A stretch of DNA of 55,921 bases from a virus (IMGVR_UViG_2541047806_000003:1-55921), one strand, 5' to 3'; positions 11,146 through 45,541 are shown, counted from the stretch's first letter. Translations and numbers: made by a program. The notes: generated from the sequence alone by a model not told the origin.

Positions 11146-11190
11146 TACTCAAACGAAGGGGAAGTTAACAAAATGGCGCGGAGGTGCGTT

Positions 11191-12125: not shown

Positions 12126-12319
12126 ACGCCATCAACCAAAAATAAAACCTCCTTCCCTTCCCGGGATCTACACCCAACGTACCCATCACCAACGTCGTGA
12201 AGATACCATATATCGCCGTTGTCAGCTTTTACAGTAAGGTCGTTGATCTCATAGTCGTCAAACAATGTAAAAGCGTAAGTTTTGTCAACTACACAAGTCC
12301 CGTACATAACAACCCCCAT
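12122..12319 (-). CDS. Small protein, distant member of paralogous family also found at 32.3-33.9 kb
   Basis: 65 aa; shares D-x-G-D/H-x-W-Y motif (ADNGDIWYLHD) with ORFs 32353, 32573, 32822, 33034, 33725; start abuts M-like stop. Confidence 0.45.
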   Translation of the reverse strand: MGVVMYGTCVVDKTYAFTLFDDYEINDLTVKADNGDIWYLHDVGDGYVGCRSREGKEVLFLVDGV

Positions 12320-12672
12320 TAGCCAACAACTTGCTCAAACGTTGCGTTTAGCGTGTACAAAGGCCCGTCTTTAGTCATGCTCCATTGCCGACAGACAAAA
12401 AGCCTTTGCACGTTATCCATTGACGGCGACCAGTAAAAAGCCTCGACCGCGCCGCGCGCCCTCAAGAATGCTTCCGCCTGGATTGCTACGTTTCCACCAT
12501 CACCACATCCGGCGCTACTGCCTTTAAACACCAGGGTGTAGCTATCAAGCAATGGATTGATACCTTTTACCTGTCTTTGCTCATAACCATCGCCCAGCTT
12601 AACAACAGATACGTCTGGCTTCCTGGTCACGCTGTAGCTTCTTTGCGGCGTCCATCTGAACACTTCCGGCAT
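12319..12672 (-). CDS. Minor tail protein (lambda M-like)
   Basis: 117 aa; VKLGDGYEQRQ and C-terminal ATFEQVVG match gpM pattern (lambda ends AEFEQVVN). Confidence 0.85.
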   Translation of the reverse strand: MPEVFRWTPQRSYSVTRKPDVSVVKLGDGYEQRQVKGINPLLDSYTLVFKGSSAGCGDGGNVAIQAEAFLRARGAVEAFYWSPSMDNVQRLFVCRQWSMTKDGPLYTLNATFEQVVG

Positions 12673-12705
12673 AAAACCCCCACAAGTTACATTTTGTATA
12701 TATCT

Positions 12706-12731
12706 TTACGCGCTTCTACGCGAAAAATAAG
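12706..12731. repeat. Conserved 26-bp element TTTACGCGCTTCTACGCGAAAAATAA (copy 1, upstream of M-like gene)
   Basis: 24/26 identical to 25055-25080 upstream of portal gene; contains direct TACGCG repeats. Confidence 0.35.
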
Positions 12732-12743
12732 ATCATTGTCACA
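12727..12743. promoter_or_regulatory. Perfect palindrome ATCATTGT-C-ACAATGAT (operator-like)
   Basis: 8-bp inverted arms read directly; about 30 bp upstream of candidate -35 of moron 3. Confidence 0.35.
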
Positions 12744-12770
12744 ATGATTATAGCTAGTTTACAAAATGGC

Positions 12771-12799
12771 TTCACATAGCACGCAACAAGATGTATATA
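12771..12799 (+). promoter_or_regulatory. Candidate sigma70 promoter for moron 3 (TTCACA-N17-TATATA)
   Basis: Hexamers with 17-bp spacer, TG immediately upstream of -10. Confidence 0.3.
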
Positions 12800-12839
12800 G
12801 AAAGCAAGAAGAAAGTAGTACCAACGAAGGAGGCTCAAA

Positions 12840-12995
12840 ATGAAACGCTATGTAGTAGTAATGCTAAATAACGCATTCGAACAAGTGGAAATAGCAATCG
12901 TTAAGGGTTTCGACGACGCATTCAAATACGGTCAATTCATGATGAATGCGAAAGAAGATGAATACCGGGACTTCTTCCTGAAGGCACTTAACTAA
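12840..12995 (+). CDS. Hypothetical small acidic protein (moron 3, gene 1)
   Basis: 51 aa (MKRYVVVMLNNAFEQVEIAIVKGFDDAF...), strong SD AAGGAGG; below 60-aa ORF-track cutoff. Confidence 0.4.
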   Translation: MKRYVVVMLNNAFEQVEIAIVKGFDDAFKYGQFMMNAKEDEYRDFFLKALN

Positions 12996-13012
12996 GGATG
13001 ATGGGGTGAGTT

Positions 13013-13267
13013 ATGAAACTGGTAGCGATTGACAGAAATCTGAAAGCACAGAAAAACGCACAGGACCGGATCATCAAGAAAGGTAAGGAATTACTTAAAG
13101 CCTTTCTGAGAAAAGAAGTTTACCCCAAAAAGTTACGCGACGGTTACGGATACAAAATGGATATCAATCTTGATTGGAGGCTGTTTAGCGAAGATTTGAA
13201 GGTTTGGTTAATTGTTGAGCACCATGCCTATAACAAGTTATGTGGCGTGAAAGGCACTCATAAGTGA
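13013..13267 (+). CDS. Hypothetical basic protein (moron 3, gene 2)
   Basis: 84 aa, SD GGGGTGAG, 17 nt after gene 1 stop. Confidence 0.5.
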   Translation: MKLVAIDRNLKAQKNAQDRIIKKGKELLKAFLRKEVYPKKLRDGYGYKMDINLDWRLFSEDLKVWLIVEHHAYNKLCGVKGTHK

Positions 13268-13326
13268 GTCGAGATATTCGAAAGGGGATATATCGCGCGG
13301 AATGGTCGTTTATAAATACGAAAAAT

Positions 13327-13359
13327 AACCCCGGCATTGCACCGGGGTTTAGTTTATTT
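13327..13359 (+). terminator. Rho-independent terminator of moron 3
   Basis: Stem AACCCCGG/CCGGGGTT, loop CATTGCA, then T-rich tract. Confidence 0.6.
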
Positions 13360-15696
13360 GCGGCGAGGTTGCAACATTCCGCCTGGTCTTTGAGATTCCC
13401 TTGTTATCATTTTCATGGCTACACGTTCCATTGTTAATTCAAGTCTGCGGCTGTCTTCGTCGCTGAATCCGTTCGTGGTCTGAATGCTGATACTGACAGG
13501 CATACTAATACCGCCACCGCCGCCAATATCACGGCCCGGAATAACTCTGCCGTTCTCGCCAGGGATCATATATTGATTGCCGTTAGATGTCTGGAATAGC
13601 TCCGGCCTGTTGTGTTCCCCTACGCGGTACATATTACCACCAATGACGCTACCACCATTAAAGCGACCGCCGCCGAAAATTGACGTAGCCAGCGACATGA
13701 TCGCAGTGAGCGCCGCCGAACCAGCCGCCGCCCAGCTACCGCCAGTTGACGCCGCAGTTGCCGCCGCTGCTGGGGCCGCCGCCGCAGCAATGCTTCCCTG
13801 AGCTGCTACCGCGCTTGCTGTTGTACTTGTTTGCGTGGCCTTGCTTTGTGTCTCCATCATGATCTGATCTGCTATCCAGTTTGCAGCTATGTCTGAGAGT
13901 CTGTTACCGATATTGCCGAGTATATTGCTTCCTAAGTTAGCAAAAACATCACTCAATGATTGAGTGCCGTTTAACAGGCCAACAAGCGCATTACTCATTC
14001 CGCCTTTAAGGCCATTAACACAATCACCGATAAGGCCGTTTGTGTCGCTTTGCGCCTGCCATTGTTCCCATTTCAGATCGCGGATCTGTTGCTCATAGGC
14101 TAACAATTCCTGTTTCTGTTGCGCTTCAGTAGCGCCCAGGTCTATAAGCATTTGCTTACGGATGGCCCATTCATTTTGCGCCTGCTGGATGGGGTCAACT
14201 TCGCCTTTTAGCTGATCCATCGGGCTTACTATTTGTGACCATTTATCACGCAATTCATCTACCGGAATTTGTGCTAATTCTTCTTTCAGTTCCTTGCCGA
14301 TCCCTTTTTGCGCGGCGCGGTACTCAAGGAGCGTGATTTTACCCTGGGCAAATGCAGCATCAATGGCCTTGCCGTTCTCCAACGCTTTGCGCATGGCGGC
14401 GGCGTCTTTGTTGTACTGATCAGAAACGCTTATACCTTTGTCACCAAGCCGATCAGCTTCCGATTTCTTCTCTTTTTTCTGTTTTTTCGGCTTGTCTACT
14501 GGCTTGTCGAATCCGGTAATCGCTCCGTCATTGGCAGCATTCTGTTCATTTTTCCTTGCTTCTTCTGTAGCCTGGATTGCTGCGGTCAGATCATCCTGTA
14601 GTTGCATGACCTTGCCAACGGTCTTCCCGTATTTCTTCTCGTAGTTGCTGTTATATTCGTCGGTTTGCTCTCCTACTACCTCCTTCATCCATTTATAGCC
14701 ATCCATTAGCGCCTTGATTGGCGTCACCATTGCGATGATCTTCTCTGCCACCTCTCCAGCCTTAACAGCCACATCATCAAACATGTCGATAAATTCGCTA
14801 CCAGCCGTTTTGAGTGTGTCGAAGCAGGTTTTAGCGAATTTAGCGCCATCGCCAAGCCCTTTAACGCCTTTCGTGATCAAGTCGATAGCTGAAACAACGC
14901 CATCTGACACGCCAAAAAGATCATCCAACTGCTCAACAAGGCCCATAATTTCTACTTTAAGCTCATTGATAGCCATGCCGGATGTGCGCGGCAACTGAGC
15001 AAACTTATCGTTTGTTTCCTGCGTAGCCGCCTGTATTGCGTTAACCATCCTTTCAGCCGTGATCTTGCCGTCCAGCATTTCGGCGCGGAACTGGCCCATT
15101 GATAATCCCATATGGCGGGCCATTGTTTGTACGATGGTCGGCGTATTTTCAAGCAGGCTGTTAAATTCTTCGGCACGAAGAACACCGCCGTCGATAGACT
15201 GACGGAATTGACGCATTGAGTTAGACATCTGTTCCGCTGACGCGCCGCCTAATGCACCCATTTTCTGAATAGTGCCAACCAGGTTAAGCAATTGCCCTTC
15301 CGTAGCGGAGGTGTTTTTTAGTGAGATAGCCAGGCCTTGCCATAATTCGCCAGTATCTTTCAGGCTCTGCCCCGTCTCCCTGGATATTGCTTTCAGGCCG
15401 TCGAAAACCCGTCCGGCGGACTCCGCATCGCCCGTAAGCATTTTGATTTTTACGCGAAGCATTTTTGCTTGCTCCGCCATATCCATAAATTGGCGCACAG
15501 CCTCCGCAGCAATTAGCAGATGGATAACCCTGGTCAGTGCCTTGATGGATGTTTTCAGGGTGTTTACCTGGCGGTCAGCCTGTTTTGCGCCGCGCTCTAT
15601 ACGATCAAAGGCCTGGTCTGCCTGTCGTTGTGCAACGAGAAGTTGACCAGTTTTCGCATCAACTTCGTAATAAATTGTACCTACACTGGTAGCCAT
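13354..15696 (-). CDS. Tail tape measure protein
   Basis: 780 aa, alpha-helical, Ala/Gly-rich C-terminal part, position between chaperone and M-like. Confidence 0.85.
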   Translation of the reverse strand: MATSVGTIYYEVDAKTGQLLVAQRQADQAFDRIERGAKQADRQVNTLKTSIKALTRVIHLLIAAEAVRQFMDMAEQAKMLRVKIKMLTGDAESAGRVFDGLKAISRETGQSLKDTGELWQGLAISLKNTSATEGQLLNLVGTIQKMGALGGASAEQMSNSMRQFRQSIDGGVLRAEEFNSLLENTPTIVQTMARHMGLSMGQFRAEMLDGKITAERMVNAIQAATQETNDKFAQLPRTSGMAINELKVEIMGLVEQLDDLFGVSDGVVSAIDLITKGVKGLGDGAKFAKTCFDTLKTAGSEFIDMFDDVAVKAGEVAEKIIAMVTPIKALMDGYKWMKEVVGEQTDEYNSNYEKKYGKTVGKVMQLQDDLTAAIQATEEARKNEQNAANDGAITGFDKPVDKPKKQKKEKKSEADRLGDKGISVSDQYNKDAAAMRKALENGKAIDAAFAQGKITLLEYRAAQKGIGKELKEELAQIPVDELRDKWSQIVSPMDQLKGEVDPIQQAQNEWAIRKQMLIDLGATEAQQKQELLAYEQQIRDLKWEQWQAQSDTNGLIGDCVNGLKGGMSNALVGLLNGTQSLSDVFANLGSNILGNIGNRLSDIAANWIADQIMMETQSKATQTSTTASAVAAQGSIAAAAAPAAAATAASTGGSWAAAGSAALTAIMSLATSIFGGGRFNGGSVIGGNMYRVGEHNRPELFQTSNGNQYMIPGENGRVIPGRDIGGGGGISMPVSISIQTTNGFSDEDSRRLELTMERVAMKMITRESQRPGGMLQPRRK

Positions 15697-15823
15697 GATT
15701 TAACCTCATGCAAAAATGTGATCTGTGTATCTATTTTATACAAAATGGCTTTACTTCAACGACTCCATTTTGTATAAGGAAGCTAAAGGGAATGGTCAGT
15801 AAATCAAGTTAGCGTGGTGGGTT

Positions 15824-16483
15824 ATGAAACGGTTAGCAAAAGTGGCAATGATTGCGGCGGTATTGGGTCTGGTTGGTTGCAATGAGGATAATGAAAAAGC
15901 GCCTATAGTGACCAATCAAGAGCAACAAGCATTAGCAGAGAAAAATGCTAAATGGCTTGCAGAACAACAAGCAAAACAAGCCGCATACGATGCACAGTTA
16001 GAAAAAGAAAATGCTGGTAAACAGTGGCTTGTAGTTGAAAGAAAAGATGATATGCAGGACGCAAAAAACGTATTCCTTTTTGTGAAAGCAGAACAATTCA
16101 GCGGAAGTCTTGATGCTTTCCCGACACTGAAGGCACAGGATAAGAATAAACCGGTATTAACAATCGCTTGCCAGGGTAATAAAACAAAAATGTTCGTAGC
16201 ATGGTCACACCATGTAACTGACGCCGGGGACACTACTTATATTAACTACCGGATCGGCGTTCACAAAGCTGTAGCTACTGAGTGGTGGCGGTCAACTAAT
16301 TATAAAGCTCTTGGATTATGGGACGGCAAAAAAGCCATCCCAATGATTAAAAAACTGGTTAACGAAAAACAATTCATCATTGAAGTAGTGCCGGAAGCTG
16401 GCGACATTGAGAAAGCAGTGTTTAACATTGATGGTCTTTATAACCACATCGACAAAGTGAAAAACGCTTGCAACTGGAATTAA
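15824..16483 (+). CDS. Lipoprotein (moron 4, gene 1)
   Basis: 219 aa; signal peptide plus lipobox LVGC; SD GGTGGG. Confidence 0.6.
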   Translation: MKRLAKVAMIAAVLGLVGCNEDNEKAPIVTNQEQQALAEKNAKWLAEQQAKQAAYDAQLEKENAGKQWLVVERKDDMQDAKNVFLFVKAEQFSGSLDAFPTLKAQDKNKPVLTIACQGNKTKMFVAWSHHVTDAGDTTYINYRIGVHKAVATEWWRSTNYKALGLWDGKKAIPMIKKLVNEKQFIIEVVPEAGDIEKAVFNIDGLYNHIDKVKNACNWN

Positions 16484-16493
16484 GGGGTAAATC

Positions 16494-16868
16494 ATGAAAA
16501 AAATAATCAAAGCGGTTCTCATTGGTGTTATGGCTTTAGCTCTTACAGGGTGCGCAAGATCAACTGATTTCGTTAAGTTAGCTGATAAAAATTTGCAAGT
16601 TGGAATGACTTGTGAGCAAGTGAATAAAATAATGGGGGAACCACAAAGAATCGAGCATGACGGTAATTATAGTTATCACGTATGGTATTCAGTAACCAGC
16701 ACGATAGGATTTACTTACATGGATGTTGAAGAATTATCCCCTTCAAGGGTTATCGCAAAGTTTGATAACTGCATCCTAAAAGAATGGAAAGATCGCAGTA
16801 AGGCAAAGTCTGTATACAATACAATCACACACAGTTCACCAGGTACAGCAATTAAAGATTTCAATTAG
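16494..16868 (+). CDS. BamE/SmpA-OmlA-like lipoprotein (moron 4, gene 2)
   Basis: 124 aa; lipobox LTGC; LQVGMTCEQVNKIMGEP resembles BamE motif. Confidence 0.55.
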   Translation: MKKIIKAVLIGVMALALTGCARSTDFVKLADKNLQVGMTCEQVNKIMGEPQRIEHDGNYSYHVWYSVTSTIGFTYMDVEELSPSRVIAKFDNCILKEWKDRSKAKSVYNTITHSSPGTAIKDFN

Positions 16869-17568
16869 CAAAACGCCCGGATCTACCGGGCTTTTCTTGC
16901 TCACGATTTTTCATTCTTTCTAGTGCCTTTTTAGCGGCCTCCATTTGCTCGTCATAAGCACGTTTATTTATGTGAATGTTTGGCTTGCTTCTCTCGTTTC
17001 TTTCGTCTGGCGGCGTTTTAGCGCGTACAACGGCCCTATATCCGGTCATTGTCATATTCCATGCTTCTGATTCTGATAACCCCAGGTGAGCTACGGCAGA
17101 ATAAACGAATTCCAGCACGTTAAAAGTCGGCTTATATTCCCCTTCCCGGCTCTCTCCGGCGTCTTCTTCTGGCCCGTCACCGATTAAACCGTGGTACATG
17201 CAATGTTGTGCCAGCGTGATAACGTCACTGGTCGGCATCAGTCCGGGTTTTAGTCGTAACTTGCCGGAAGAAGTTAACCTACATTCACCCAATAACGGGG
17301 CTATTTCGTCGTCTGAGCAACATTTCAGGATGCGCATTGACGTTTGTACTATCTCACCATAACACCGCGCCATAATGCGATTGCGGAGGTCTGGATCTGT
17401 AGGCAATCGTGATGGGTATTTGCTGCCGTGGATAAGTGCGAAATATTCGACAAGCTCACTATCGTTGCCGATTTTAGCCATCGCAGCAAAGCAAGGATTA
17501 AACTCATAGCGCTTACCGTTCACCACAGCCGCAAATTGTCCTGTACGAACATGGATCATAGTATTCAC
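16861..17568 (-). CDS. Tail assembly chaperone (G/GT-position)
   Basis: 235 aa acidic protein between major tail and tape measure genes; assigned by position. Confidence 0.5.
   Translation of the reverse strand: MNTMIHVRTGQFAAVVNGKRYEFNPCFAAMAKIGNDSELVEYFALIHGSKYPSRLPTDPDLRNRIMARCYGEIVQTSMRILKCCSDDEIAPLLGECRLTSSGKLRLKPGLMPTSDVITLAQHCMYHGLIGDGPEEDAGESREGEYKPTFNVLEFVYSAVAHLGLSESEAWNMTMTGYRAVVRAKTPPDERNERSKPNIHINKRAYDEQMEAAKKALERMKNREQEKPGRSGRFAN
16875..16898 (+). terminator. Rho-independent terminator of moron 4
   Basis: Stem GCCCGG/CCGGGC, loop ATCTA, then TTTTCTT. Confidence 0.6.
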
Positions 17569-17571
17569 CTT

Positions 17572-17596
17572 AAAAGAAAAGGGGCCAAATGGCCCC
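17572..17596 (-). terminator. Attenuator/terminator after major tail protein gene
   Basis: Stem GGGGCC/GGCCCC followed on minus strand by TTTTCTTTT. Confidence 0.5.
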
Positions 17597-17614
17597 GATT
17601 GTTAATATTGGCTG

Positions 17615-18091
17615 TTATGCTGGCGGAACGTCGCCTACCGTTACCTTGCCAGCGCTTTCGCACTCAATGGACCAGGTGGAAACATTATCGTGTGGATCTT
17701 CTTCTTTAAAGGAAGTGCAAAGGAATGGGCCTTCAGTTACGTCTACAGGAGAAACGATCTTCAGCCATACATAAGGTTGTGATCCGGTGGTTTCACCTGG
17801 CGTAATTACGTGGCGTTTCAGCGCTTTCTGATTATGGATTTCTTCAGTGCGGGACACACCGTCGCCGGAGAAAGAAACGGATTTGTAAGTAACCATTGAT
17901 TCTTTCGTGTAATCGGCTGATTTATCGGCGGTGGCGTCAGCGGTTTCCCATTCAACGGAAAGTGTTTTACCACGCATCATGCCTAACGCTTTGTACGCTC
18001 CAGTTTCCGGCTTCGCATTTGGACAAGCGATAGCGAAGAATACAGCAACGTCACGGCCTGTAAACGTGCCTTTTTCGCAAGTCTGAGACAT
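17615..18091 (-). CDS. Major tail protein
   Basis: 158 aa; position upstream of chaperone and followed by attenuator hairpin. Confidence 0.7.
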   Translation of the reverse strand: MSQTCEKGTFTGRDVAVFFAIACPNAKPETGAYKALGMMRGKTLSVEWETADATADKSADYTKESMVTYKSVSFSGDGVSRTEEIHNQKALKRHVITPGETTGSQPYVWLKIVSPVDVTEGPFLCTSFKEEDPHDNVSTWSIECESAGKVTVGDVPPA

Positions 18092-18104
18092 GTTAATTTA
18101 CCTC

Positions 18105-18491
18105 TTATCTTGATATGATGGTTTGAAAAGCTACGGTAAAAATAAAGCGCCCTTCTCTTGTCTGCATTGCAGGGATAGCGCCAACTGGCTTCATGTGTGT
18201 AATTTTATCAGTTTTATATTCTGTTAACATACTTTGACGGATGGCATCGGCAAGGTCTTCCACTTCACTGATATTTGTATCATTACGCGCTGAAATAACC
18301 AGAATGCGGAAATAATCACGGGTTATTGCTTCTTCACCAGCCGCGCCGCCGTTTTGCTGGATTACGATGTATCTGTCATTATTCGAATTGCTCCGCTCAT
18401 TCCAGAAACGGGCCTGCAAAATATAGCCCTCATCGTATCCGTGGGATTGAATCCAATCCCTTATTTCGTCGTATACTTCGCTGCGCTTCAT
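18105..18491 (-). CDS. Tail terminator / completion protein (U-position)
   Basis: 128 aa, position between head-tail genes and major tail gene. Confidence 0.5.
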   Translation of the reverse strand: MKRSEVYDEIRDWIQSHGYDEGYILQARFWNERSNSNNDRYIVIQQNGGAAGEEAITRDYFRILVISARNDTNISEVEDLADAIRQSMLTEYKTDKITHMKPVGAIPAMQTREGRFIFTVAFQTIISR

Positions 18492-18952
18492 GTTTTGTAA
18501 CCTTCTACAATCTCTTTATAAATATCGTCGGCGTTGTTTGGATCTTCGAATGCCTTGCGCAAGAATTCCGGCTCCGCGTTTGGGTCCCAATATTTACCTT
18601 TGCCAGTACCGCCGCCGAACTCAATTACCTGTTTCGGCCCGAAATCTGAAAGGTTATTTGTTTTCCCGAAATGTTCACGCGGCTGGCCTTTTAATGTGCC
18701 TGGCATATTGTGCACCCATTCAGCGTAACGGGCTGTATATCCCAGCCGTAACTGCATACCCTCCGCCGTGTTACCTATATATTGAAATTGGCTGTTAATT
18801 AAAAAACCCGTATCAACTGGTGTCATGTTTGCCGCGAAGCCACCAGCCAGCATACCGACGCGCCATAAAACTTCGTGCGTCTTTTTATCGGTGATTTCCT
18901 TTAGTTCCTGCTTTAATCTCTCACGGACGCGTTTAACCCCCTTGATAGGCAT
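18488..18952 (-). CDS. HK97 gp10-like tail/neck component
   Basis: 154 aa; VDTGFLINSQF resembles gp10-family motif. Confidence 0.55.
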   Translation of the reverse strand: MPIKGVKRVRERLKQELKEITDKKTHEVLWRVGMLAGGFAANMTPVDTGFLINSQFQYIGNTAEGMQLRLGYTARYAEWVHNMPGTLKGQPREHFGKTNNLSDFGPKQVIEFGGGTGKGKYWDPNAEPEFLRKAFEDPNNADDIYKEIVEGYKT

Positions 18953-18954
18953 GA

Positions 18955-19323
18955 TTAACCCCCTGTCACGATCTTATAATCCGGCGTGTCGTTAAACATG
19001 CTCATATCCCATTCAACGATCCCGGTAATAACGTTGGCCCCAGCCACCAGCGGGTCGGAAATATTAGTGGTGTCGCCAGTGGCAATCATCCAGCCGTTTT
19101 TCGGGCGCTGCACTGGCTGCATATTATGAAGCAGTTCGGTAAATACGGTTATTGTATTGCTAACCTCATTACCGTTTGTGTCTGTTGCAGTGCCGTCGGT
19201 GCGCTCCCATGCGCAGTTAATCAGGTATGGTGCGCCGTATACGTCGGCGTTTGTCCAGTCGTCATGCGTTACGGGGTAGATGGTGGCTAATGCCTTGTAA
19301 CTGAATCGCGCAATCTTACTCAT
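18955..19323 (-). CDS. Head-tail joining / head closure protein
   Basis: 122 aa, assigned by position. Confidence 0.45.
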   Translation of the reverse strand: MSKIARFSYKALATIYPVTHDDWTNADVYGAPYLINCAWERTDGTATDTNGNEVSNTITVFTELLHNMQPVQRPKNGWMIATGDTTNISDPLVAGANVITGIVEWDMSMFNDTPDYKIVTGG

Positions 19324-19507
19324 AGCCGTAACTCCAGCTAATGACCTTTGGATGAGTTTTCGCCACGCGCGGGCAAAGAATTACCCATAAGCCAGCATCA
19401 TTGAGGTAGGCCGCCACCTGGCGTCCGCTATCCGTTTTAACCCACACGCGGGTAAATGGTTTCGGCAATACTGGATTTGGTAATGTCAGGTCGTTCCACA
19501 TTGTCAC
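19316..19507 (-). CDS. Small hypothetical protein in head-tail joining cluster
   Basis: 63 aa ORF coupled to neighbours. Confidence 0.35.
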   Translation of the reverse strand: MTMWNDLTLPNPVLPKPFTRVWVKTDSGRQVAAYLNDAGLWVILCPRVAKTHPKVISWSYGYE

Positions 19508-19890
19508 ATCCTCCTGCTCTTACCAATCCACAGCCCGGCGTGCGCGGTGTTTTCTGGATCTGGTGGAATTAGTTCGGCTGTACAATGGTGTTTGTCCAGT
19601 GAGTAAAGCAACGAATAGGCCGCCTTCCATCGCTTATTAAAATCGACATAGCGGTAAGACTGGCTTGCACCGTTCGGACCAGTCTGCGAGGAAACGTATT
19701 TATCAGCCTGGCTGAGTCCTAACAGGCCAATGAGATAAAGCTGAATCAATGTTGCAGTGGAGGACGGATAATTGGCATCAAGGCATTCATTAACGCTATT
19801 TGCCTGCTCCACCAGCAAAGATAAAACCACGTCTGGTATTTCAATCCCCTGGCTTTCGAGATATTCCCGCGCCTGTTGTGTGGTAACCAT
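19504..19890 (-). CDS. Head-tail connector / DNA packaging protein (gp6 or FI-position)
   Basis: ORF-track start 19926 lies inside a terminator hairpin; start moved to MVTTQQAREY at 19890. Confidence 0.45.
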   Translation of the reverse strand: MVTTQQAREYLESQGIEIPDVVLSLLVEQANSVNECLDANYPSSTATLIQLYLIGLLGLSQADKYVSSQTGPNGASQSYRYVDFNKRWKAAYSLLYSLDKHHCTAELIPPDPENTAHAGLWIGKSRRM

Positions 19891-19908
19891 TTTGTTTTCT
19901 CCACATAC

Positions 19909-19936
19909 AAAAAAAATCCCCGGCATTGCGCCGGGG
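19909..19936 (-). terminator. Terminator/attenuator after major capsid gene
   Basis: Stem CCCCGGC/GCCGGGG followed on minus strand by T-run. Confidence 0.55.
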
Positions 19937-19955
19937 AGCTACAGAAACATATCAA

Positions 19956-21020
19956 TCAGGTATTGCTGCCGTAGACCACTCCTGAACGACCTTCCATGTC
20001 ACGGGTGATTTGCAGACCCTCAGCGGACATGATGCGGAAGTTGTAGTTATCAGTCGGCATCATGCGCGGTAACGGTACAACACCAGTAGTCATACCAACC
20101 AGCGGGGTAATTACGCTACGGCTGCGCTGATAAGCAATGAACTCGTTGCCGGACAATGCATAGCTCTGGCGAATCTCACCAACCGGAGCGAACGGCATAA
20201 TGACGCTCAGCACGCTACCGACTACAGCACCATTAACGATGTGTGGGCGTGCCAGGTTAGCCATGATTTCTGGCGATACCCACATTACATCGTATTTAGC
20301 TACGAAGTTGGCGCGGGCCAGTTTCCCGAACTCACCAGTGGTAAAGAATTCAATAATCTTATCGAAAGCCGCAGTGGTAAGGTCGATTTTAGCGACAGTT
20401 TTCAGTTTAAGTTGCTGGGTGTTTTTGTGGTTTTTAATACCCATTGCTTTATGATCATCAACCACGATGCGATCGTTACCATTCAGGTAGAACTGGACGC
20501 GTGCTTTGTTGAATTTTTTCAGTTTAAGGCGCTGGCTGTCTAATGCAAGGTCGATACCTACAGTATTTAAGCCCTGAGCGAGACGCCAGTTAACACCGTA
20601 ACCAGCCGCGAACATCGGGATCGGGTCGCCATCGCTATCGTATTCGGTGTGATCAAAGCCGTGTGGCGCTTGACCATCCATAGACATCACAACTTCATCA
20701 TTGATGTCACCGGATACGTTGTACATTTTCAGCGTTTTACCGACTGGCAGTACGGTTTGCACACCCATCAGGTCGTTTACGATCTCAATACCGATTTCTT
20801 CGGTGTTCAGTTCGATAATCTGGTTATCGATTTCTTTCCAGAATTCTTTTGCGAAGCCGCCGACGGCGTTACAGGTCAACATTTCAGCGGTCATATTTGC
20901 CTGATTTGCAGCAATCATGGCGTTGTGCTGCTCGTTGAAGATATTGCGTTGCGCCCACAGTTCTTTCCAATGGCCCTGCATACGGGCGTTGGTGGCAAGG
21001 TTTTCTTTTGTAAAGTACAT
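19956..21020 (-). CDS. Major capsid protein
   Basis: 354 aa, follows decoration-protein gene, followed by strong terminator. Confidence 0.8.
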   Translation of the reverse strand: MYFTKENLATNARMQGHWKELWAQRNIFNEQHNAMIAANQANMTAEMLTCNAVGGFAKEFWKEIDNQIIELNTEEIGIEIVNDLMGVQTVLPVGKTLKMYNVSGDINDEVVMSMDGQAPHGFDHTEYDSDGDPIPMFAAGYGVNWRLAQGLNTVGIDLALDSQRLKLKKFNKARVQFYLNGNDRIVVDDHKAMGIKNHKNTQQLKLKTVAKIDLTTAAFDKIIEFFTTGEFGKLARANFVAKYDVMWVSPEIMANLARPHIVNGAVVGSVLSVIMPFAPVGEIRQSYALSGNEFIAYQRSRSVITPLVGMTTGVVPLPRMMPTDNYNFRIMSAEGLQITRDMEGRSGVVYGSNT

Positions 21021-21037
21021 GTTTTTCCCCTTTTAAA

Positions 21038-21466
21038 TTAAGCAACGCGAACGCGGATAAAATCTTCCGCCTCCAGGGTTACGTCTTCCTGGCAGTATGC
21101 GATGATCGGATCTGGCGCTGCCTGTTCACTTGGCGCAACAAACAGTTTCACCCCGTCGGCTGCGAGAGCAATAGCTGCACCCTTAACATAAGCGGCTGCA
21201 GGAACAAGGAGAGCAAACTCTCGGCCCTGTTCCACATAATCAGCAACAACAGTTTCATTTGCAGCGATTGCATCAGTAATGGTTTTGCCTTCGTGGAATG
21301 CCGGGTTGACGATGTACAACTGAGCTGCACCGACATCAGCACTGGTTGCTTTTGCAAACTTACCTCCGTCCAGTTTTACCAGTTCACCTGGTTTTACTGC
21401 GACCTTAGCAGTGTAGGTTTCGGTAATGGATTTACCATCAATATTTACACGACGAAAACGAGACAT
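21038..21466 (-). CDS. Head decoration protein (lambda D-like)
   Basis: 142 aa Ala/Val-rich protein immediately upstream of capsid gene. Confidence 0.7.
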   Translation of the reverse strand: MSRFRRVNIDGKSITETYTAKVAVKPGELVKLDGGKFAKATSADVGAAQLYIVNPAFHEGKTITDAIAANETVVADYVEQGREFALLVPAAAYVKGAAIALAADGVKLFVAPSEQAAPDPIIAYCQEDVTLEAEDFIRVRVA

Positions 21467-21480
21467 TGTATTCCCTCCAG

Positions 21481-22785
21481 TTAGAAATAAGTGTTAAAGT
21501 CAGGGACTTCGCCTTTTTTGTCTTCACTTGCTGTGTTGGCGGCTAGCGGAGTTGCTTTACCCAGGGATTTAAACATTGCCTCTAATGCTTCACCGCTTAA
21601 TGCGTTAGCAACAATTTCGCCGTGAACTTTTGCTACTGCGGCGCGTTTTTCTGCTACTTCTTTATTTGCGTTTGCTGCAATTTCTTCTTTAATTGCTTTC
21701 TGGTTGGTCTGTAATTCTTCTTGGTTGGTCTGCAATTCTTCTACGCTTGCCTGTACTGGTTTTAATGCCTCTGCTACTGCATTAGCGATATTGGCGGCTA
21801 AGCCTTCGTTAATTTCTTTTACCAGTTCGGCGCGTTCTTCTTTTGTCAAAGGCATGGGATCGTCCTCCGATTTATTGGCCTTAATTTTTTCATTCAGGGA
21901 GAAAAGATTAGACAGGTGTTCAGCGAACTGAGCGAACCATGATTTACTTTCCTCATTGGTTGCAAGTTCGCCATTATTGAGAATAATTTTATCAGCCTGT
22001 TTTTCATATGCGCAAACTTGAGCACTTTCGGTATTAGTGGCAATCGTCACTTCTTTATCAGTGAAGTCCACAACATACACGTAATCGGCATCAGGAAATA
22101 ATTCACGCGCCGCGTCGGTTAATTGTTTCTCAAGCGTACGGTAACTGTTTTCTTTCATTGCCACCGCCATTAACGGTTTCGCCTGGTCAGTATTAACCAT
22201 CAACCCTACACCCTGTTCAGGTGATGCGGCTGGCGGCTCATGCAGCAAAATAGCGTCATGGTCGATCGACATAATTTTTACTACATGGTCAGCGCCCTGG
22301 GCTTTCATCTCTTCAGTAGCTGGCATACGCTGACGATATACAGCGACGGACGACCAGATAGGATCTTTGCTTTCTCCTTTCTCCAGTGCTTCCAGTCGGG
22401 TTAATAATTCGCGCCCCTGTTCTGAATGGCTGGCTGTTTCAATATCCACCCATTTTTCCACATAAACACGATTGCCGCGTAATTCAACGTTTCTGTTCCA
22501 CGCTCCACAAAACCCGGTGTTCAATCCTTCCGGGCTAAATGCGGAAACAAATTTACCGTCAACGGTAGGATGGCCTAACGGTGCAAGCGTCCCCTCCAGT
22601 GACTGGTAATTAGCGATAATTTCAGCTTCTGGGTAATACTCACGATTCATAACGATATTGAATGGCAGCGTATATGATGGCACAACAATGTGCTCGCGTC
22701 CGTTATAAGTTTCCCGGCGTATGGTATTAGCGGTTAATTTGGTATTAACCTGAATCAATTCTTTACTCACGGTTTTTACTCCCAA
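21481..22785 (-). CDS. Prohead protease / scaffolding protein (fusion type)
   Basis: 434 aa, C-terminal coiled coil with EELQTNQEELQTNQ repeat; position between head morphogenesis and decoration genes. Confidence 0.5.
   Translation of the reverse strand: MGVKTVSKELIQVNTKLTANTIRRETYNGREHIVVPSYTLPFNIVMNREYYPEAEIIANYQSLEGTLAPLGHPTVDGKFVSAFSPEGLNTGFCGAWNRNVELRGNRVYVEKWVDIETASHSEQGRELLTRLEALEKGESKDPIWSSVAVYRQRMPATEEMKAQGADHVVKIMSIDHDAILLHEPPAASPEQGVGLMVNTDQAKPLMAVAMKENSYRTLEKQLTDAARELFPDADYVYVVDFTDKEVTIATNTESAQVCAYEKQADKIILNNGELATNEESKSWFAQFAEHLSNLFSLNEKIKANKSEDDPMPLTKEERAELVKEINEGLAANIANAVAEALKPVQASVEELQTNQEELQTNQKAIKEEIAANANKEVAEKRAAVAKVHGEIVANALSGEALEAMFKSLGKATPLAANTASEDKKGEVPDFNTYF
21700..21741. 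repeat. 21-bp tandem direct repeat (2 copies) inside scaffold gene
   Basis: CTGGTTGGTCTGTAATTCTTC / TTGGTTGGTCTGCAATTCTTC. Confidence 0.6.
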
Positions 22786-23720
22786 TCTTCGCCATATTTA
22801 GCGTGCGCAACTTTATAGTTTTCTTGCGCCCGATCTAATATTCTTCCGTTTAATATGTTACCGTCTTCGTCAACTAATACGGTAATCGTGCTACATTTGC
22901 AGTTAATAGAATTTGGGGATCTGCTCCACCATTCGCGCTGCTCATCTATGGTGTATGTTTTTCCGTGCCGCTGCGCGTGCGATAGCCTGGTGGTCGGTGA
23001 TAACGCCGAAATGTGCATTTGCATAGTGCGCAGATTAAATTCTTCTGTCGCAGCTTCTGCCTCATCCATACGCGCTGTGCGTAACGCTGTGCATATTTCA
23101 GTTCGGGCAATACGTTTACACCTGAATAGCGGTAATTGCGTCTCCTGATTCAATGTGCGCGCTATTTCCAGTGGGTTTAAACCACGGGCCATGCCTTCAG
23201 TTAGTCGGCGGGCCATATCCTTTTTGATCTGTGCTGTCAGCCCGCGCATTTCCTCAAATACACGGGTACGGACCAGGGCAAGGCGCGTGCGGTAGGTTGT
23301 GCTTGATAGTACGGCAGATACATCGGGATAAACGCTTGAGTACGTGACAGACTGGTTAGCAAGGTTGGCGTATTCCTGTGCCGTGCCTCGCTGATACGCG
23401 ACCTTCACGTATTCCTGCCAGAACCAAAAACTTTCCGGGTCGGTTAGCTCGAATATCTCATCAATCATGTCGCTGGCGTCCTCCAGCATGTCGTGAAATT
23501 CATCCATGTAAATCTGAAAGGTGTATTTCTTATTAACAGCCAGGCTATATTGGATTCTGTCCAATATGGCGATATATGGATCGGCTACTTTTTTCAGGCA
23601 GGATTTGAAACGCTTAATAGCACCAGACCTTAACTTCCCTGTCATGGTCGGGTCTTCGGTGTTAGATGGCATTATCGCGGCTGGAGGTATTCGCCTGATT
23701 ATCTTCTTCACATTCATCAT
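22776..23720 (-). CDS. Head morphogenesis / minor capsid protein (Mu F / SPP1 gp7-like)
   Basis: 314 aa, position directly after portal gene. Confidence 0.6.
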   Translation of the reverse strand: MMNVKKIIRRIPPAAIMPSNTEDPTMTGKLRSGAIKRFKSCLKKVADPYIAILDRIQYSLAVNKKYTFQIYMDEFHDMLEDASDMIDEIFELTDPESFWFWQEYVKVAYQRGTAQEYANLANQSVTYSSVYPDVSAVLSSTTYRTRLALVRTRVFEEMRGLTAQIKKDMARRLTEGMARGLNPLEIARTLNQETQLPLFRCKRIARTEICTALRTARMDEAEAATEEFNLRTMQMHISALSPTTRLSHAQRHGKTYTIDEQREWWSRSPNSINCKCSTITVLVDEDGNILNGRILDRAQENYKVAHAKYGEDWE

Positions 23721-25032
23721 CGTTTTCCTCTTCCAGTTCTACCTCACTAGCCGGGCCATCGTATCCGGCAGCTTCGCGGATCTCGTCACCGCTGAATATT
23801 TCCTCACCAGTAGCGAGACATGCCTGATTGATTTGTGCCATTTTGTATGCCGCGTCGAGTAGCTCTGCTTTTGTCATGGCGTTAAGGTCGTCCCACAGTA
23901 CAGATACGTCTACTGGCATACTGATAAGGCGGAGATCTGCCATCTTGCGGAATAGCTCCTCAAGCTCACCTCCTATTTCCTCACGGCGGGTCATGCAGCG
24001 GTTATTGAAGTAGCGGAGGTCTTCGGTTGATGCGCGCTCGCCCTGCTGATTCCCAACCAGGATACGCGTTGGAATATCGATACCAGCGGCTGCGGTTTGC
24101 AGGTTGACGTCATAGGTAGCGGAAGGATCTGCTACGGCAGTAACCAGCGGGCTAACGGTAGCTCCCTGTAATGCCATCATCACATCATTACCTTTATTTA
24201 TATCCTCTGCCGCTTCATTGAATTTTTCGCGTAGCTCTGTAACGTCGCAACCGTATGTTGCAGCCAGAGAACGGAAATCAATTTCTTTATCGAACGAGAT
24301 AGCCAGTTGACGTGCTGCGTTTTTCAGGAATGATTCACCGCTGCCGCCTTCCACTTTCTCCAGTGAAACGAATGCGTTATAGGACGGTTCAAGGAAAGCG
24401 ATGGCATCATCAGAATAATCACCGAAGATAAATATGCGATCTGGATGTATCTTTCTTGCTATGGTCTTACTGTTAATGCGCTCCTTGTATTCCCACCATG
24501 TAGGCAGGCCATAGTTTTCTTTATCCGGGTTTTCTTCGAAGTCCTTCGGTGTAAGAGCACCAGCCCATACGGGGGTAAATTTGGCAATGCCTACGCCTTT
24601 TGTTACTGGCTGATCCCACGGCTTGTTATCCCTGACGTGAATTAACAGTCCAGCATAACGACCGATGAGGCGGCGGCGATCGCATTCAGCAATTACGCGC
24701 CAGAATCTATTGTCGAATCGTTTTTTGATTTCTCTTTCCCACGAAGTTTCCTTTTCCGCTTTCTCGTCTTCCGTACCTTCAATCAGCGTTGGCCTGGTGC
24801 GCCAGCACGTAGTAATGATCTTCTCAATAGCACCGTGAGCGATACCACCGCGACGATACAGTTTGTATAAATCGGCATAGGTGATTTCTTCTTTGAATCC
24901 GTATTCACTCCACGCAGCATCACGTTTTGCATCAATACCCATTGAGAATGGGTTAGCGGCTGCATAGCGGGCAAAGGCCGCCTGGCGTTGTGACAAGGCA
25001 GCATTAACCGCCAATTCTAAATTGGATGGCAT
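23662..25032 (-). CDS. Portal protein
   Basis: 456 aa from ATG 25032 (SD AGGAG), acidic C-terminus, follows terminase large subunit. Confidence 0.75.
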   Translation of the reverse strand: MPSNLELAVNAALSQRQAAFARYAAANPFSMGIDAKRDAAWSEYGFKEEITYADLYKLYRRGGIAHGAIEKIITTCWRTRPTLIEGTEDEKAEKETSWEREIKKRFDNRFWRVIAECDRRRLIGRYAGLLIHVRDNKPWDQPVTKGVGIAKFTPVWAGALTPKDFEENPDKENYGLPTWWEYKERINSKTIARKIHPDRIFIFGDYSDDAIAFLEPSYNAFVSLEKVEGGSGESFLKNAARQLAISFDKEIDFRSLAATYGCDVTELREKFNEAAEDINKGNDVMMALQGATVSPLVTAVADPSATYDVNLQTAAAGIDIPTRILVGNQQGERASTEDLRYFNNRCMTRREEIGGELEELFRKMADLRLISMPVDVSVLWDDLNAMTKAELLDAAYKMAQINQACLATGEEIFSGDEIREAAGYDGPASEVELEEENDDECEEDNQANTSSRDNAI

Positions 25033-25054
25033 AATGTTTACTCCTGAATACATG

Positions 25055-25080
25055 TTTACGCGTTGCTACGCGAAAAATAT
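25055..25080. repeat. Conserved 26-bp element TTTACGCGTTGCTACGCGAAAAATAT (copy 2, upstream of portal gene)
   Basis: 24/26 identical to 12706-12731. Confidence 0.35.
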
Positions 25081-25180
25081 AAAAACTTGCGGGGGATTGT
25101 GAGGCAGATTTTATGTAGCCAATTGAGAATTATTCTTGTTCATCTTCGGAAATTTTTCGAAGTTGATAATAATCAATAAC

Positions 25181-26695
25181 TTAAAATCCGCGCAGGCGCT
25201 TAGGTAACATAAGGCCCATCGCCTGTGGTTGGCTTAATTCGGTGATACCCCATACCATAGCGTCCATACGGTCAGGGGATTTTTTAGCGGTGGCTGGCAC
25301 GTATTCCATCATTTGATTTTCCAGCGTGTACAACTCACCAGTGTGGGCCACCCTTCCCTGTGCATATAGCGCAGATATTGGTTCGGCACGGGCGAATTTA
25401 CCTTTGCTTGCGTGTACCTTAACAATGCGGCCTTTGAATCCGGCATTACGTAGTGTGGCCTCTGCCATATCACCACCCTGGTTGGTTTCGATAACCATCG
25501 CGTCAGCTTCATGGATGTTGTAGGCGTTCATTGCTGCTTGCGCCCAGTCGTTAGGTGACATGCGGCCTGAGTAGTCACCGTCTACAGAATACTGAGCGTA
25601 CTTGCCGCCACCATAAGCGGAACATGCCACGATCCCGGTTTCGTCCGACTCATCAGATGATGTTGTTGCCGGGTCGATGGCTATCACCGTGCGAATTTTC
25701 TCCTGCGTTATCTGCATCCTGTGCGCGGCGGTTATCATCGCTTCAGTCCACAATGCGCCCTCTTGATCGAACTTGCGCGGACACTGCATATATTGAGCTT
25801 CGAATGTTCGGCGATGTGATTTAAGAGTTGATTCATCTTTATCACTATGCTTATGCAACCATAGCCAGCCATCCGGCAGGTTGTGAGGAACAGGAATAGC
25901 GAATTTGTTTTCCGGGTACAGATCCCAATAGTCAAGACTGTTGTCGATCTTCACTGGCAGGCAAAGGTGATGCCATTTCTCACCACTACCGCCACGTAAC
26001 AGGTAGCCGGATAAATCATCGTAGTGGATACGCTGCATGATGACGATCACTGGCGTTGTTTGCACAGCCAGGCGCGAAGAAAGCGTGTCGTTGTAATTGG
26101 TATTAACCTGCTTTCGCACCACATCAGAATAAGCGTCAGCTGGTTTCAGGGGGTCATCAATAATCATTGCGCCGTTAAACCCAGGTTCCATGTACCCGGC
26201 GCGGAACCCTGTCACCTGTCCAAGCGATGACGTCGCATACACGCCGCCACCCTGAGTGGTCCACCACAGGTTTTTCGCGTTCGAATCGTTGCGCATTTGC
26301 ATAGGCCACAATTCCTGATATTGCGGCATCGTGATTATGTTTCTTGTCTCTGAGGAATTAAGCAAGGCGAGTCCGTGTGAATACGATACATGCAGGAATC
26401 TGGTGCGGGGTTCTATTGCGAGGCAGCGGGCCATCATGTGAATTGTGGCAATCATTGTTTTGCCATAGCCCGGTGGGATGTTGATTATCAACCTGGTGAT
26501 TTCACCATTAATAACTCGTTGTAGCGTATCGGCAATTATTCTGTGATGACGCCCAACCAAAAAGTCATTGCCAACCTGTTGCTTATAAAAGTAGGAACTA
26601 AAAAACAAAGGTGCTGATATGTCTTTGGGAGCACAACCTTTAACACACAACCACCTTAGAACCTCTCTGTCAATCTTTGTCGTCGCAGTCTCCAT
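25181..26695 (-). CDS. Terminase large subunit
   Basis: 504 aa; Walker A-like PPGYGKT; nuclease-like acidic motif AIDPATTSSDESDETG; start uncertain. Confidence 0.85.
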   Translation of the reverse strand: METATTKIDREVLRWLCVKGCAPKDISAPLFFSSYFYKQQVGNDFLVGRHHRIIADTLQRVINGEITRLIINIPPGYGKTMIATIHMMARCLAIEPRTRFLHVSYSHGLALLNSSETRNIITMPQYQELWPMQMRNDSNAKNLWWTTQGGGVYATSSLGQVTGFRAGYMEPGFNGAMIIDDPLKPADAYSDVVRKQVNTNYNDTLSSRLAVQTTPVIVIMQRIHYDDLSGYLLRGGSGEKWHHLCLPVKIDNSLDYWDLYPENKFAIPVPHNLPDGWLWLHKHSDKDESTLKSHRRTFEAQYMQCPRKFDQEGALWTEAMITAAHRMQITQEKIRTVIAIDPATTSSDESDETGIVACSAYGGGKYAQYSVDGDYSGRMSPNDWAQAAMNAYNIHEADAMVIETNQGGDMAEATLRNAGFKGRIVKVHASKGKFARAEPISALYAQGRVAHTGELYTLENQMMEYVPATAKKSPDRMDAMVWGITELSQPQAMGLMLPKRLRGF

Positions 26696-27195: not shown

Positions 27196-27279
27196 TCAAT
27201 ATTTATTGATGATATATACGCAAGCTACAAAACTTGCGCAGTATGTTAAAACTTCCAACCAGTCGAACAGCTCTTTCAT
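27196..27279 (-). CDS. Mini-ORF P10, MKELFDWLEVLTYCASFVACVYIINKY
   Basis: 27 aa, SD AAGGTAA; ends 10 nt before TerS start. Confidence 0.3.
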   Translation of the reverse strand: MKELFDWLEVLTYCASFVACVYIINKY

Positions 27280-27349
27280 TGTTTACCTTTATGCGAAGAA
27301 AACGATAACGACTAACAACGTGCATATAGCCATAATTAAGAAGTCACTG

Positions 27350-27424
27350 TCAGACATTGATAATCACCCCAATAATAACTAATGCAACGGTACACACGAT
27401 CAACATAATATCAATAGCGTTCAT
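27350..27424 (-). CDS. Mini-ORF P8, MNAIDIMLIVCTVALVIIGVIINV
   Basis: 24 aa, SD AGGTGA. Confidence 0.3.
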   Translation of the reverse strand: MNAIDIMLIVCTVALVIIGVIINV

Positions 27425-27432
27425 GCTTTCAC

Positions 27433-27501
27433 CTATTGAGCAAGCGCGGTCATAGTGAGAACAATCGCAACGATCAGGAAAAAGAAATCAAGCCATTTCA
27501 T
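27433..27501 (-). CDS. Mini-ORF P7, MKWLDFFFLIVAIVLTMTALAQ
   Basis: 22 aa, ATG overlaps stop of P6 (ATGA), SD GGGAG. Confidence 0.3.
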   Translation of the reverse strand: MKWLDFFFLIVAIVLTMTALAQ

Positions 27502-27578
27502 TTTTTAAACTCCCGATAAACATCTACGGCAATAACTGTAATAACAGCCACCAGCAATAGCATTTCGTATGCGTTCAT
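27498..27578 (-). CDS. Mini-ORF P6, MNAYEMLLLVAVITVIAVDVYREFKK
   Basis: 26 aa; alternative frame within 3' part of P5 ORF. Confidence 0.3.
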   Translation of the reverse strand: MNAYEMLLLVAVITVIAVDVYREFKK

Positions 27579-27672
27579 TGACACTACCTATAACCAGACC
27601 AATGATGATAATTACGGCTACTACGCAAAACATCATCCCGCACATAATCGCCAGTAATTCGAATATATCCAT
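27505..27672 (-). CDS. Mini-ORF P5, MDIFELLAIMCGMMFCVVAVIIIIGLVIG... (55 aa)
   Basis: SD AGGTGA; longer than siblings, may be a fused or degenerate copy. Confidence 0.25.
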   Translation of the reverse strand: MDIFELLAIMCGMMFCVVAVIIIIGLVIGSVNERIRNAIAGGCYYSYCRRCLSGV

Positions 27673-27680
27673 GCCGTCAC

Positions 27681-27755
27681 CTATACAACATTCTTCCACC
27701 AGAAACAGATAATGACGGCGACCAACGACCACCAGATGAGATCGTAAATATTCAT
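27681..27755 (-). CDS. Mini-ORF P4, MNIYDLIWWSLVAVIICFWWKNVV
   Basis: 24 aa, SD GAAGGT. Confidence 0.3.
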   Translation of the reverse strand: MNIYDLIWWSLVAVIICFWWKNVV

Positions 27756-27766
27756 GGTGAATACCT

Positions 27767-27841
27767 TCAGCTTTCAATGAGTATCATGATCGCCAGCCAT
27801 ACAGCGACGCAGACAGAAAGGATAATTAGCGGGTCAATCAT
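27767..27841 (-). CDS. Mini-ORF P3, MIDPLIILSVCVAVWLAIMILIES
   Basis: 24 aa, SD GGTGGGGTGA inside 3' end of P2. Confidence 0.3.
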   Translation of the reverse strand: MIDPLIILSVCVAVWLAIMILIES

Positions 27842-27846
27842 ATTTT

Positions 27847-38335: not shown

Positions 38336-38493
38336 AATGCTCTCTCCTTTTCAGGTGATTTCTACGCATTTCAGCGCTGCCGGATTTTTAAAGAGCATTT
38401 TGTTTGCTTGAAGTATACAAAATGGATACCCCAAACAAGGCAAAAAGCGCCATTATGTGATCCGCATCACGCAATGACGCCATTTTGTAAATT

Positions 38494-41777: not shown

Positions 41778-41876
41778 CTTGTTTTCCTCCGTGCCGTAAA
41801 CCTTTTGATTTCGGTTTACAAAACGGATACGCGATCACAACACAAAATGTATATTTATGTGATCGCAATCACGCTG

Positions 41877-45250: not shown

Positions 45251-45541
45251 TTAATGGTAGCGGACTTTATCCAGGGGTTTTTCCCCTAAATGGCGTGGTT
45301 GCGTTGCGTGGTAGTAGCTGCCGCTTTCATTTTCCGTATACCATTTTACTGATCCTTTGCGACGTTCTTTAATGCTATTTGGTTTGCATCTTTCCTCGTT
45401 TGCAAATCGAATAGCTTTATCCACATTGTCTGTTTTATTGATTGCAGGTGATGATTTTCTTTCGTTTTCTCTTTTTATCCTTCTGCGTTCCCTGGCATTC
45501 ATTTTGCTATCACATTTACCATATATAATTGTAACGCTCAT
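45251..45541 (-). CDS. N-like transcription antiterminator (P22 gene 24-like)
   Basis: 96 aa; N-terminus MSVTIIYGK plus Arg-rich motif NARERRRIKRENERK; first gene of leftward operon. Confidence 0.55.
   Translation of the reverse strand: MSVTIIYGKCDSKMNARERRRIKRENERKSSPAINKTDNVDKAIRFANEERCKPNSIKERRKGSVKWYTENESGSYYHATQPRHLGEKPLDKVRYH

Follow-up and report, generated by a model that had tools for sequence, protein, structure and literature searches.

A conserved two-copy element in the leaders of the portal and minor tail protein M genes of mEpimmI coliphages

Introduction

Why do two separate late genes of one phage, for the portal and for the minor tail protein M, carry nearly the same 26-bp sequence in their leaders, and would it act there as RNA or as DNA? 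The question is raised by the viral genome IMGVR_UViG_2541047806_000003 (55,921 nucleotides, the whole of which is called the window below), a genome-sized relative of mEp021, mEp010/013/044/515/554, and MagusPhagus (mEpimmI group). The members of this group are Nus-dependent non-lambdoid coliphages, and in Escherichia coli of the human gut they are met as often as lambdoid phages (PMC11893012). The element is undescribed and belongs to a familiar category, the cis-regulatory leader elements; no paper that we found mentions it, or the late promoters or operators of the mEpimmI group. It was first noticed in the window sequence itself, and that reading is referred to here as the original prediction.

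Results

Two copies in the leaders of portal and M

The 26-bp core lies at 12705–12730 (M copy) and 25055–25080 (portal copy), in both cases on the sense (minus) strand of the gene that follows. The two copies are identical at 24/26 positions, as originally predicted, and the portal copy is exactly where it had been placed; the M copy had been placed one base off, at 12706–12731. By local alignment the likeness reaches 35 nt with 30/35 identity, read on the minus strand from 12729 to 12695 and from 25079 to 25045. A degenerate 26-mer (≤3 mismatches) occurs twice in the window, against 0.00 expected from 100 dinucleotide-preserving shuffles, and a profile made from 36 natural variants likewise finds 2 sites only (E = 2e-15 and 4e-14). 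The next-best profile match (E = 0.03; 24221–24234), a 14-mer complementary to the leader and located inside the portal open reading frame (ORF), is rejected as a third copy; it is regarded as a coding coincidence because it varies freely at synonymous sites in relatives. Also set aside is an inverted 12-mer, CCCCCRCAAGTT near the portal copy and AACTTGTGGGGG near the M copy, which was equaled in 37/300 shuffles (not significant) and is not conserved.

On the sense strand the order is a T-tract, then CGCGTA-N4-CGCGTA, then AA. The A-tract that the original prediction placed after its TACGCG repeats belongs to the antisense strand, the sense strand having its T-tract before the repeats. The distance from core to start codon is 32 nt for M (ATG 12672) and 22 nt for portal (ATG 25032), within the 20–35 nt first proposed. 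For portal, the first in-frame ATG of the ORF (25053) has no ribosome-binding site (RBS), and the annotation pipeline PGAP likewise picks the second ATG (25032). Neither copy is coding, the sole ORF across the element being a spurious 40-aa TTG ORF. Taken together, the evidence confirms that the leaders of two late genes share a cis element that is conserved and specific to this lineage.

Conservation among relatives

Relatives were fetched via proteins, not via the motif, so that sampling stays unbiased. The portal copy is present at 49/49 usable portal loci in IMG/VR and the M copy at 30/30 M loci of mEpimmI type; presence in relatives was one of the points on which the original prediction depended, and the element is universal in the group. 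Nothing similar was found in 50 more distant M homologues (about 67–71% identity). A motif scan of IMG/VR gave 45 portal-type, 34 M-type, and 2 unrelated matches; L210 falls in the 3′ untranslated region of a picorna-like RNA virus, and L166 looks like chance. All deposited mEpimmI phages (7/7) have two copies each, and phage D6 has only the T-rich left half in common (E = 0.1). Of 5,426 complete E. coli genomes, 34 contain the portal leader, and the portal copy was also located in 21 metagenome contigs and in 3 E. coli prophages that are divergent; when metagenomes were scanned with the 14-nt core left free, only three variants came back, all of them known already. Species-representative bacterial genomes contained neither the portal (profile search) nor the element in a phage context; their 5 element matches lie in unrelated metagenome-assembled genomes and are about the number expected by chance (estimated).

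The roughly 60 nt up to the portal start codon are nearly invariant, and the flanking coding DNA is less conserved and varies at synonymous sites. The M copy is one among several conserved blocks in a compact control region upstream of M. Orientation and distance to the RBS are constant at both sites across relatives.

Predicted hairpin in the sense RNA

In the sense RNA the core folds as UUU-CGCG-U[AGAA/AGCA]R-CGCG-(U)-AAA, and both copies have the same minimum-free-energy hairpin, with a CGCG/CGCG core, a tetraloop, and a bulged U (Table 1). The M copy has a U.G closing pair with loop AGAA, the portal copy U-A with AGCA; the outer stem comprises three to seven A-U/G.U pairs between the 5′ U-tract and 3′ AAA(N)AU. 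The core hairpin, located 4–19 nt ahead of the Shine-Dalgarno sequence, is retained in whole-leader folds, which do not sequester the RBS.

Natural variation is mostly in the loop (AGAA, GGAA, AGAG, AGCA, AGCU, AGCG, and a 6-nt UAGAAU). In one lineage (L030/L031) a 1-nt loop deletion brings the repeat spacing from 10 to 9 bp, so that the spacing of one helical turn, put forward originally as a feature of the repeats, is not fixed. The GC stem shows two C-to-U transitions only, each opposite G and thus wobble-compatible on the sense strand only, and most changes in the AU extension are A-to-G or G-to-A opposite U, which keep pairing on the sense RNA. Standard pairs make up 93.0% of cells on the minus-strand RNA versus 82.4% on the plus-strand RNA. 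In some genomes the loop has been exchanged between the copies together with its closing pair: the M copy has AGCA-A in L025, and the portal copy has AGAA-G in L088/L129. Both versions are therefore interchangeable, and the exchange suggests gene conversion between the copies.

We tentatively read the element as a leader-RNA hairpin bound by a trans factor, which would set translation and/or stability of the portal and M cistrons; we put the probability of this reading at roughly 0.4. It is supported by the placement of the copies, since both are on the sense strand, 22–32 nt before start codons, and in regions that are necessarily transcribed. Several observations weigh against it. Only a few independent substitutions underlie the strand asymmetry. 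Covariation was not detected among relatives that are very similar to one another (observed pairing 93.0% versus 93.7% column-shuffled, with 497/500 shuffles as high); a double change occurs at one outer pair only, and 12/36 sequences are mismatched there. Folding energies are ordinary (z = −0.3 to −1.5), the whole window has 0 Rfam matches at the gathering threshold, and the two CGCGTA repeats are conserved alike (Y-GCGT-A-R), a pattern for which a DNA direct-repeat site accounts just as well. More divergent relatives for the covariation analysis were not obtained from species-representative genomes with the portal profile, and the most divergent E. coli prophages added nothing.

The anatomy of the element thus fits an RNA hairpin operator and a tandem-repeat DNA site alike. 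Because variation is focused on the loop, a 9-bp variant exists, and substitutions are asymmetric between strands, the balance tilts slightly towards RNA. Of the original proposal, a protein-binding site or an RNA element, the regulatory character is upheld; neither option is singled out, and RNA is mildly favored.

Alternative readings of the element

Read as DNA, the element would be an operator of tandem CGCGTA(R) repeats with a 10-bp period, bound head-to-tail by a phage or host DNA-binding protein that roadblocks or represses transcription into portal and M (stoperator-like silencing in the lysogen), or activates it. This is the rival to be taken most seriously, and we regard it as somewhat unlikely. 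It would account for the profile common to both repeats, in which the first C is changed to T once in each and GCGT is invariant, and for the invariance of the positions left unpaired in the RNA (TAG, bulged T, and TAAA flank); the missing covariation also speaks for it, and the M copy, just downstream of a conserved TATAAT, is in a plausible place for an operator. Lambda CII boxes (TTGC-N6-TTGC) have the same 4+6 geometry. The element has further traits in common with them and with Cox, Xis, or ribbon-helix-helix-type sites: its two direct repeats of 4–6 bp have a period of 10 bp, and the temperate phage genome carries it in more than one place. Unlike CII boxes, it has a geometry to any −10 that misfits CII-dependent promoters, its spacing varies, and no CII-like protein was identified. 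An operator of this kind is further opposed by the 9-bp spacing in the one lineage that departs from the 10-bp period, by the number and place of the sites (two per genome, both outside the immunity region and away from the control region of any regulator), and by Pfam and PHROG scans of 27 neighboring and early-gene proteins, which gave no DNA-binding candidate. Moreover, terS and terL precede the portal copy in their common operon, and a roadblock at that point would leave the terminase genes unsilenced.

That the copies mark internal late promoters, with YATTTT 5′ of the first CGCG as −10 and the repeats as initially transcribed or regulatory region, is improbable. A sigma-70 match of 9/12 (CTCACA-16-TATATT) is found at the portal copy of the window only. 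CTCACA is conserved in relatives, and the 17–19 nt that separate it from TATTTT differ much more in their sequence than in their number; A/T bases occupy the two key −10 positions of YATTTT at portal and M alike, and tail genes after opposite-strand cassettes appear to have a promoter-like motif of their own. Most relatives, however, have TCTATT, in which the A at −10 position 2 is lost, and the weak alternative CTCACA-18-TATTTT has a −10 match of 4/6 with an 18-nt spacer. The sigma-70 scan gave no match and no −35 partner at the M copy, which has a far better match, a conserved TATAAT, about 20 nt upstream, and a start inside the element would leave its conserved downstream half unexplained. 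A lambda-like Q/pR′/tR′ system for reading through internal terminators is also present. Its candidate late promoter and qut region (30118→30044, minus strand) has TTGTAG-17-TAAAAT with a −10-like AACAAT at about +1 to +6, comparable to the AACGAT pause element of lambda pR′; a strong terminator (30062–30044) and the holin ATG (30019) follow, as in lambda pR′-tR′, and about 6 kb with roughly 30 small ORFs lie between this region and the Q gene. By analogy with lambda, the arrangement offers a conventional route for read-through of internal terminators.

Two other transcriptional assignments were rejected. As a qut site of a lambda-type Q, the element has only the octamer GCGTAAAC in common with the 30.1-kb region, in a different register; this octamer is mildly enriched in number (12 versus 4.7 expected), nearly always on the coding strand, an excess that GCG-TAA gene ends could explain. 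As an intrinsic terminator, it has its T-tract before the hairpin on the minus strand and the A-tract after the hairpin on the plus strand, and scans gave no terminator at either copy.

A sequence with no dedicated function, either a relic of an ancient duplication or a homology patch kept by recombination or gene conversion at module boundaries, would be compatible with the exchange of loop and closing-pair versions between copies in some genomes and with the mosaic breakpoints and 72-bp indel that adjoin the portal copy. We consider it very improbable: across all relatives the core is more conserved than neighboring coding sequence, and both sites are universally occupied with the constant placement noted above.

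Phage mEp021 is Nus-dependent and uses three nut sites (PMC11893012). In the window, boxA plus spacer GCWCTTTAAAAATC is perfect at 3 sites only and is common to all genuine nut sites (Table 1). Near the element boxA (CGCTCTTTA-like) is absent, and nothing within 3 mismatches of GCWCTTTAAAAATC lies near either copy, and on this ground the element is rejected as a lambda-type nut site. The genuine boxB hairpins (nutR2, GCGC-UGAAAU-GCGU; nutL, UCGCU-GCGA-AGCGA) have a similar type of stem; the loops of the element are AGAA or AGCA, GNRA-type GGAA being found in one lineage only. Least probable of all is a boxB-only, nut-like loading site at which the N-like antiterminator Gp17 re-arms RNA polymerase in the late region: the element does resemble lambda-type nut sites (N; mEp021 Gp17) in being a short (C)GCG-type stem on the sense transcript with U at the 5′ loop edge and an A-rich loop, with a true GNRA loop in that lineage and an M copy 10–20 nt after a candidate promoter, a placement like that of the nut sites, but it is without boxA or the conserved spacer signature of all three genuine sites, its usual loops lack the GNRA-type 5′ G, and the portal copy is not promoter-proximal, no promoter being found upstream of it. 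The nutR2 boxB region (GCGCUGAAAUGCGUAGAAAU; 38360–38367, minus strand) contains an octamer, GCGTAGAA, that is also in the M copy (5 in the window versus 1.7 expected); this is probably a coincidence.

Upstream region of M and the 13-bp motif

The candidate M promoter combines a 13-bp motif with the conserved TATAAT (Table 1). A transcript started from this TATAAT would carry the M copy at about +10 to +45. The portal copy has no equivalent module of 13-bp motif and TATAAT, and no conserved promoter or terminator nearby; the element must therefore work within a polycistronic transcript as well.

With CCATTTTGTAWAC as its sequence, the 13-bp motif is itself far more frequent than chance would give, with 23 occurrences in the window versus 4.1 expected (≤2 mismatches) and 10 in MagusPhagus versus 0.18 expected (≤1 mismatch). 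Its sites are mostly intergenic and point at the downstream gene, at every restart after an opposite-strand cassette (before the tape-measure protein [TMP] gene, M, and L), and they are found also before nutR2, in the promoter ahead of the leftward nut site, next to early promoters, and at other places. Inverted pairs are common (reverse-complement motif, N16, motif), with GATCACAT nearby. From its distribution the motif is probably a promoter or operator module, possibly the Rep021/Cro operator; we found no description of it in the literature.

Between TATAAT and the M copy (12732–12748) the window has a perfect palindrome, ATCATTGT-G-ACAATGAT. In its place many relatives (L012–L034) have TGTGA-N6-TCTCA, which agrees with the core of the CRP consensus at 9/10 positions. 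These sequences suggest further regulation of the divergent region between M and the toxin-antitoxin cassette. On the other side of the element, ahead of the M RBS, all M-type relatives have a start-stop mini-ORF (12686–12691, minus strand), ATG-TAA or, in one lineage, ATG-TGA.

Genome context

Nearly all genes from the CI-like repressor (46042–46689) through the tail fibers are on the minus strand, in the order N-like gene, recombination genes, methyltransferases, lambda-family Q, many small ORFs, lysis genes, and terS, then terL, portal, head genes, tail genes, TMP, M, L, and further genes. The late region is broken several times by plus-strand cassettes with bidirectional terminators at their borders. 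The cassette between TMP and M comprises a 51-aa ORF (12840–12995, plus strand) and an 84-aa ParE-like toxin (13013–13267, plus strand; PF24732), a toxin-antitoxin-like pair that is conserved across the phage group, with a bidirectional terminator at 13327–13349. The original prediction had both genes follow such an interruption, which applies to M, located after this opposite-strand cassette, and not to portal, which follows terL on the same strand.

The portal copy is inside the terL–portal spacer, with the terL stop about 45 nt upstream in most relatives. The window and a subset of relatives have an insertion of about 72 bp (about 25107–25178) right after the terL stop, and most relatives are without it and have a 78-bp spacer. 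The insertion holds a small hairpin, CTTCGAAAAATTTCCGAAG, and the element downstream is unaffected. In most E. coli prophage genomes the portal homologue (DUF1073 / Phage_portal_3) is named "anti-CBASS protein Acb1 family protein" by RefSeq/PGAP, which looks like a naming artifact. From the lysis genes to terS (about 27200–28030, minus strand) the window has a run of very short hydrophobic ORFs, which may be small membrane peptides or morons.

Table 1 Positions of the element, its predicted hairpins, and other features of the window. Strand is given relative to the window sequence; z, z-score of the folding energy.
Feature	Position	Strand	Details
M copy, 35-nt region	12695..12729	−	sense sequence TATTTTTCGCGTAGAAGCGCGTAAAGATATATACA
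Portal copy, 35-nt region	25045..25079	−	sense sequence TATTTTTCGCGTAGCAACGCGTAAACATGTATTCA
Predicted M-copy hairpin	12701..12729	−	12 pairs; CGCG/CGCG stem 12709–12722; −10.6 kcal/mol, z = −1.45
Predicted portal-copy hairpin	25049..25081	−	CGCG/CGCG core 25059–25072; AU-rich outer stem; −8.9 kcal/mol, z = −0.73
Candidate M promoter	12747..12769	−	13-bp motif CCATTTTGTAAAC (12757–12769), then perfect conserved TATAAT (12747–12752)
13-bp motif sites, minus (examples; syntenic sites in L004)	11164–11176, 12757–12769, 15736–15748, 38413–38425, 41814–41826	−	
13-bp motif sites, plus (examples)	15765–15777, 45920–45932, 46763–46775, 50737–50749	+	syntenic sites in L004
Minor tail protein M gene	12319..12672	−	Pfam Phage_min_tail; GGGGG RBS
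Portal gene	23662..25032	−	Pfam Phage_portal_3 / DUF1073; AGGAG RBS 25041–25045
Terminase large subunit gene (terL)	25181..26695	−	
Q gene, lambda-family	36234–36956	−	Pfam PF03589
N-like gene	45251–45541	−	
nutR2 boxA plus spacer	38383–38396	−	
nutR1 boxA plus spacer	45834–45847	−	
Leftward nut site (nutL) boxA plus spacer	46854–46867	+	

Discussion

The reading that we prefer, a leader-RNA hairpin, would operate as follows. The sense transcript would form a short GC-clamped hairpin in the untranslated leaders of portal and M. Its recognition features would be the UAG beside the loop, which is invariant, together with the bulged U and the AU flanks; they would be read in trans by an RNase or by an RNA-binding protein of the phage or the host. 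How fast the downstream mRNA segment is translated, how stable it is, or both would depend on this factor. The low-copy initiators of head assembly (portal) and of tail-tip assembly (M) would thereby be produced in a coordinated manner, independently of the upstream RNA, whether untranslated or terminase-coding.

Leader operator hairpins are well known from phages, among them the Com target in the mom leader of Mu, the gp43 and RegA operators of T4, and the coat-protein operator of MS2. Like these translational operators, the element combines a particular loop and a bulged nucleotide in a small hairpin, at or just 5′ of the RBS, and by analogy the sequence-specific conservation of its unpaired positions would fit a protein-recognized RNA. 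Unlike them, its hairpin is clear of the Shine-Dalgarno sequence and start codon, and no competing inhibitory structure was detected in the folds; nor does it have sequence similarity to the Com, gp43, RegA, or MS2 operators. With stabilizer hairpins (ompA-type 5′ stem-loops; T7 intercistronic RNase III sites) it has in common its position in an untranslated gap directly ahead of a cistron and after untranslated RNA, the RNA upstream of the M copy being antisense of the toxin-antitoxin cassette. In contrast to such stabilizers, its stem is shorter than a classical RNase III site requires, and its sequence is conserved beyond what a generic stabilizer needs.

An extension of the hairpin reading, which we think rather improbable, is a minimal post-transcriptional regulon of two copies, in which one RNA-binding factor encoded by the phage would recognize both leaders, so that the initiators of head and tail would be made in step with the state of infection or assembly. 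Possible factors are the arginine-rich, N-like Gp17, for which the hairpin would be a boxB-like target lacking boxA, and a structural protein present in excess.

Opposite-strand cassettes repeatedly break the late operon of the mEpimmI group, so that its control is less obvious than in lambda. A strictly conserved two-site element is an easily mutated handle on the stoichiometry or timing of the assembly initiators, and under either reading its effect is probably specific to the mEpimmI phages. If the element is an RNA operator with a dedicated binding protein, it would represent a new phage module of translational control; if it is a DNA operator, it would reveal an unrecognized late regulator.

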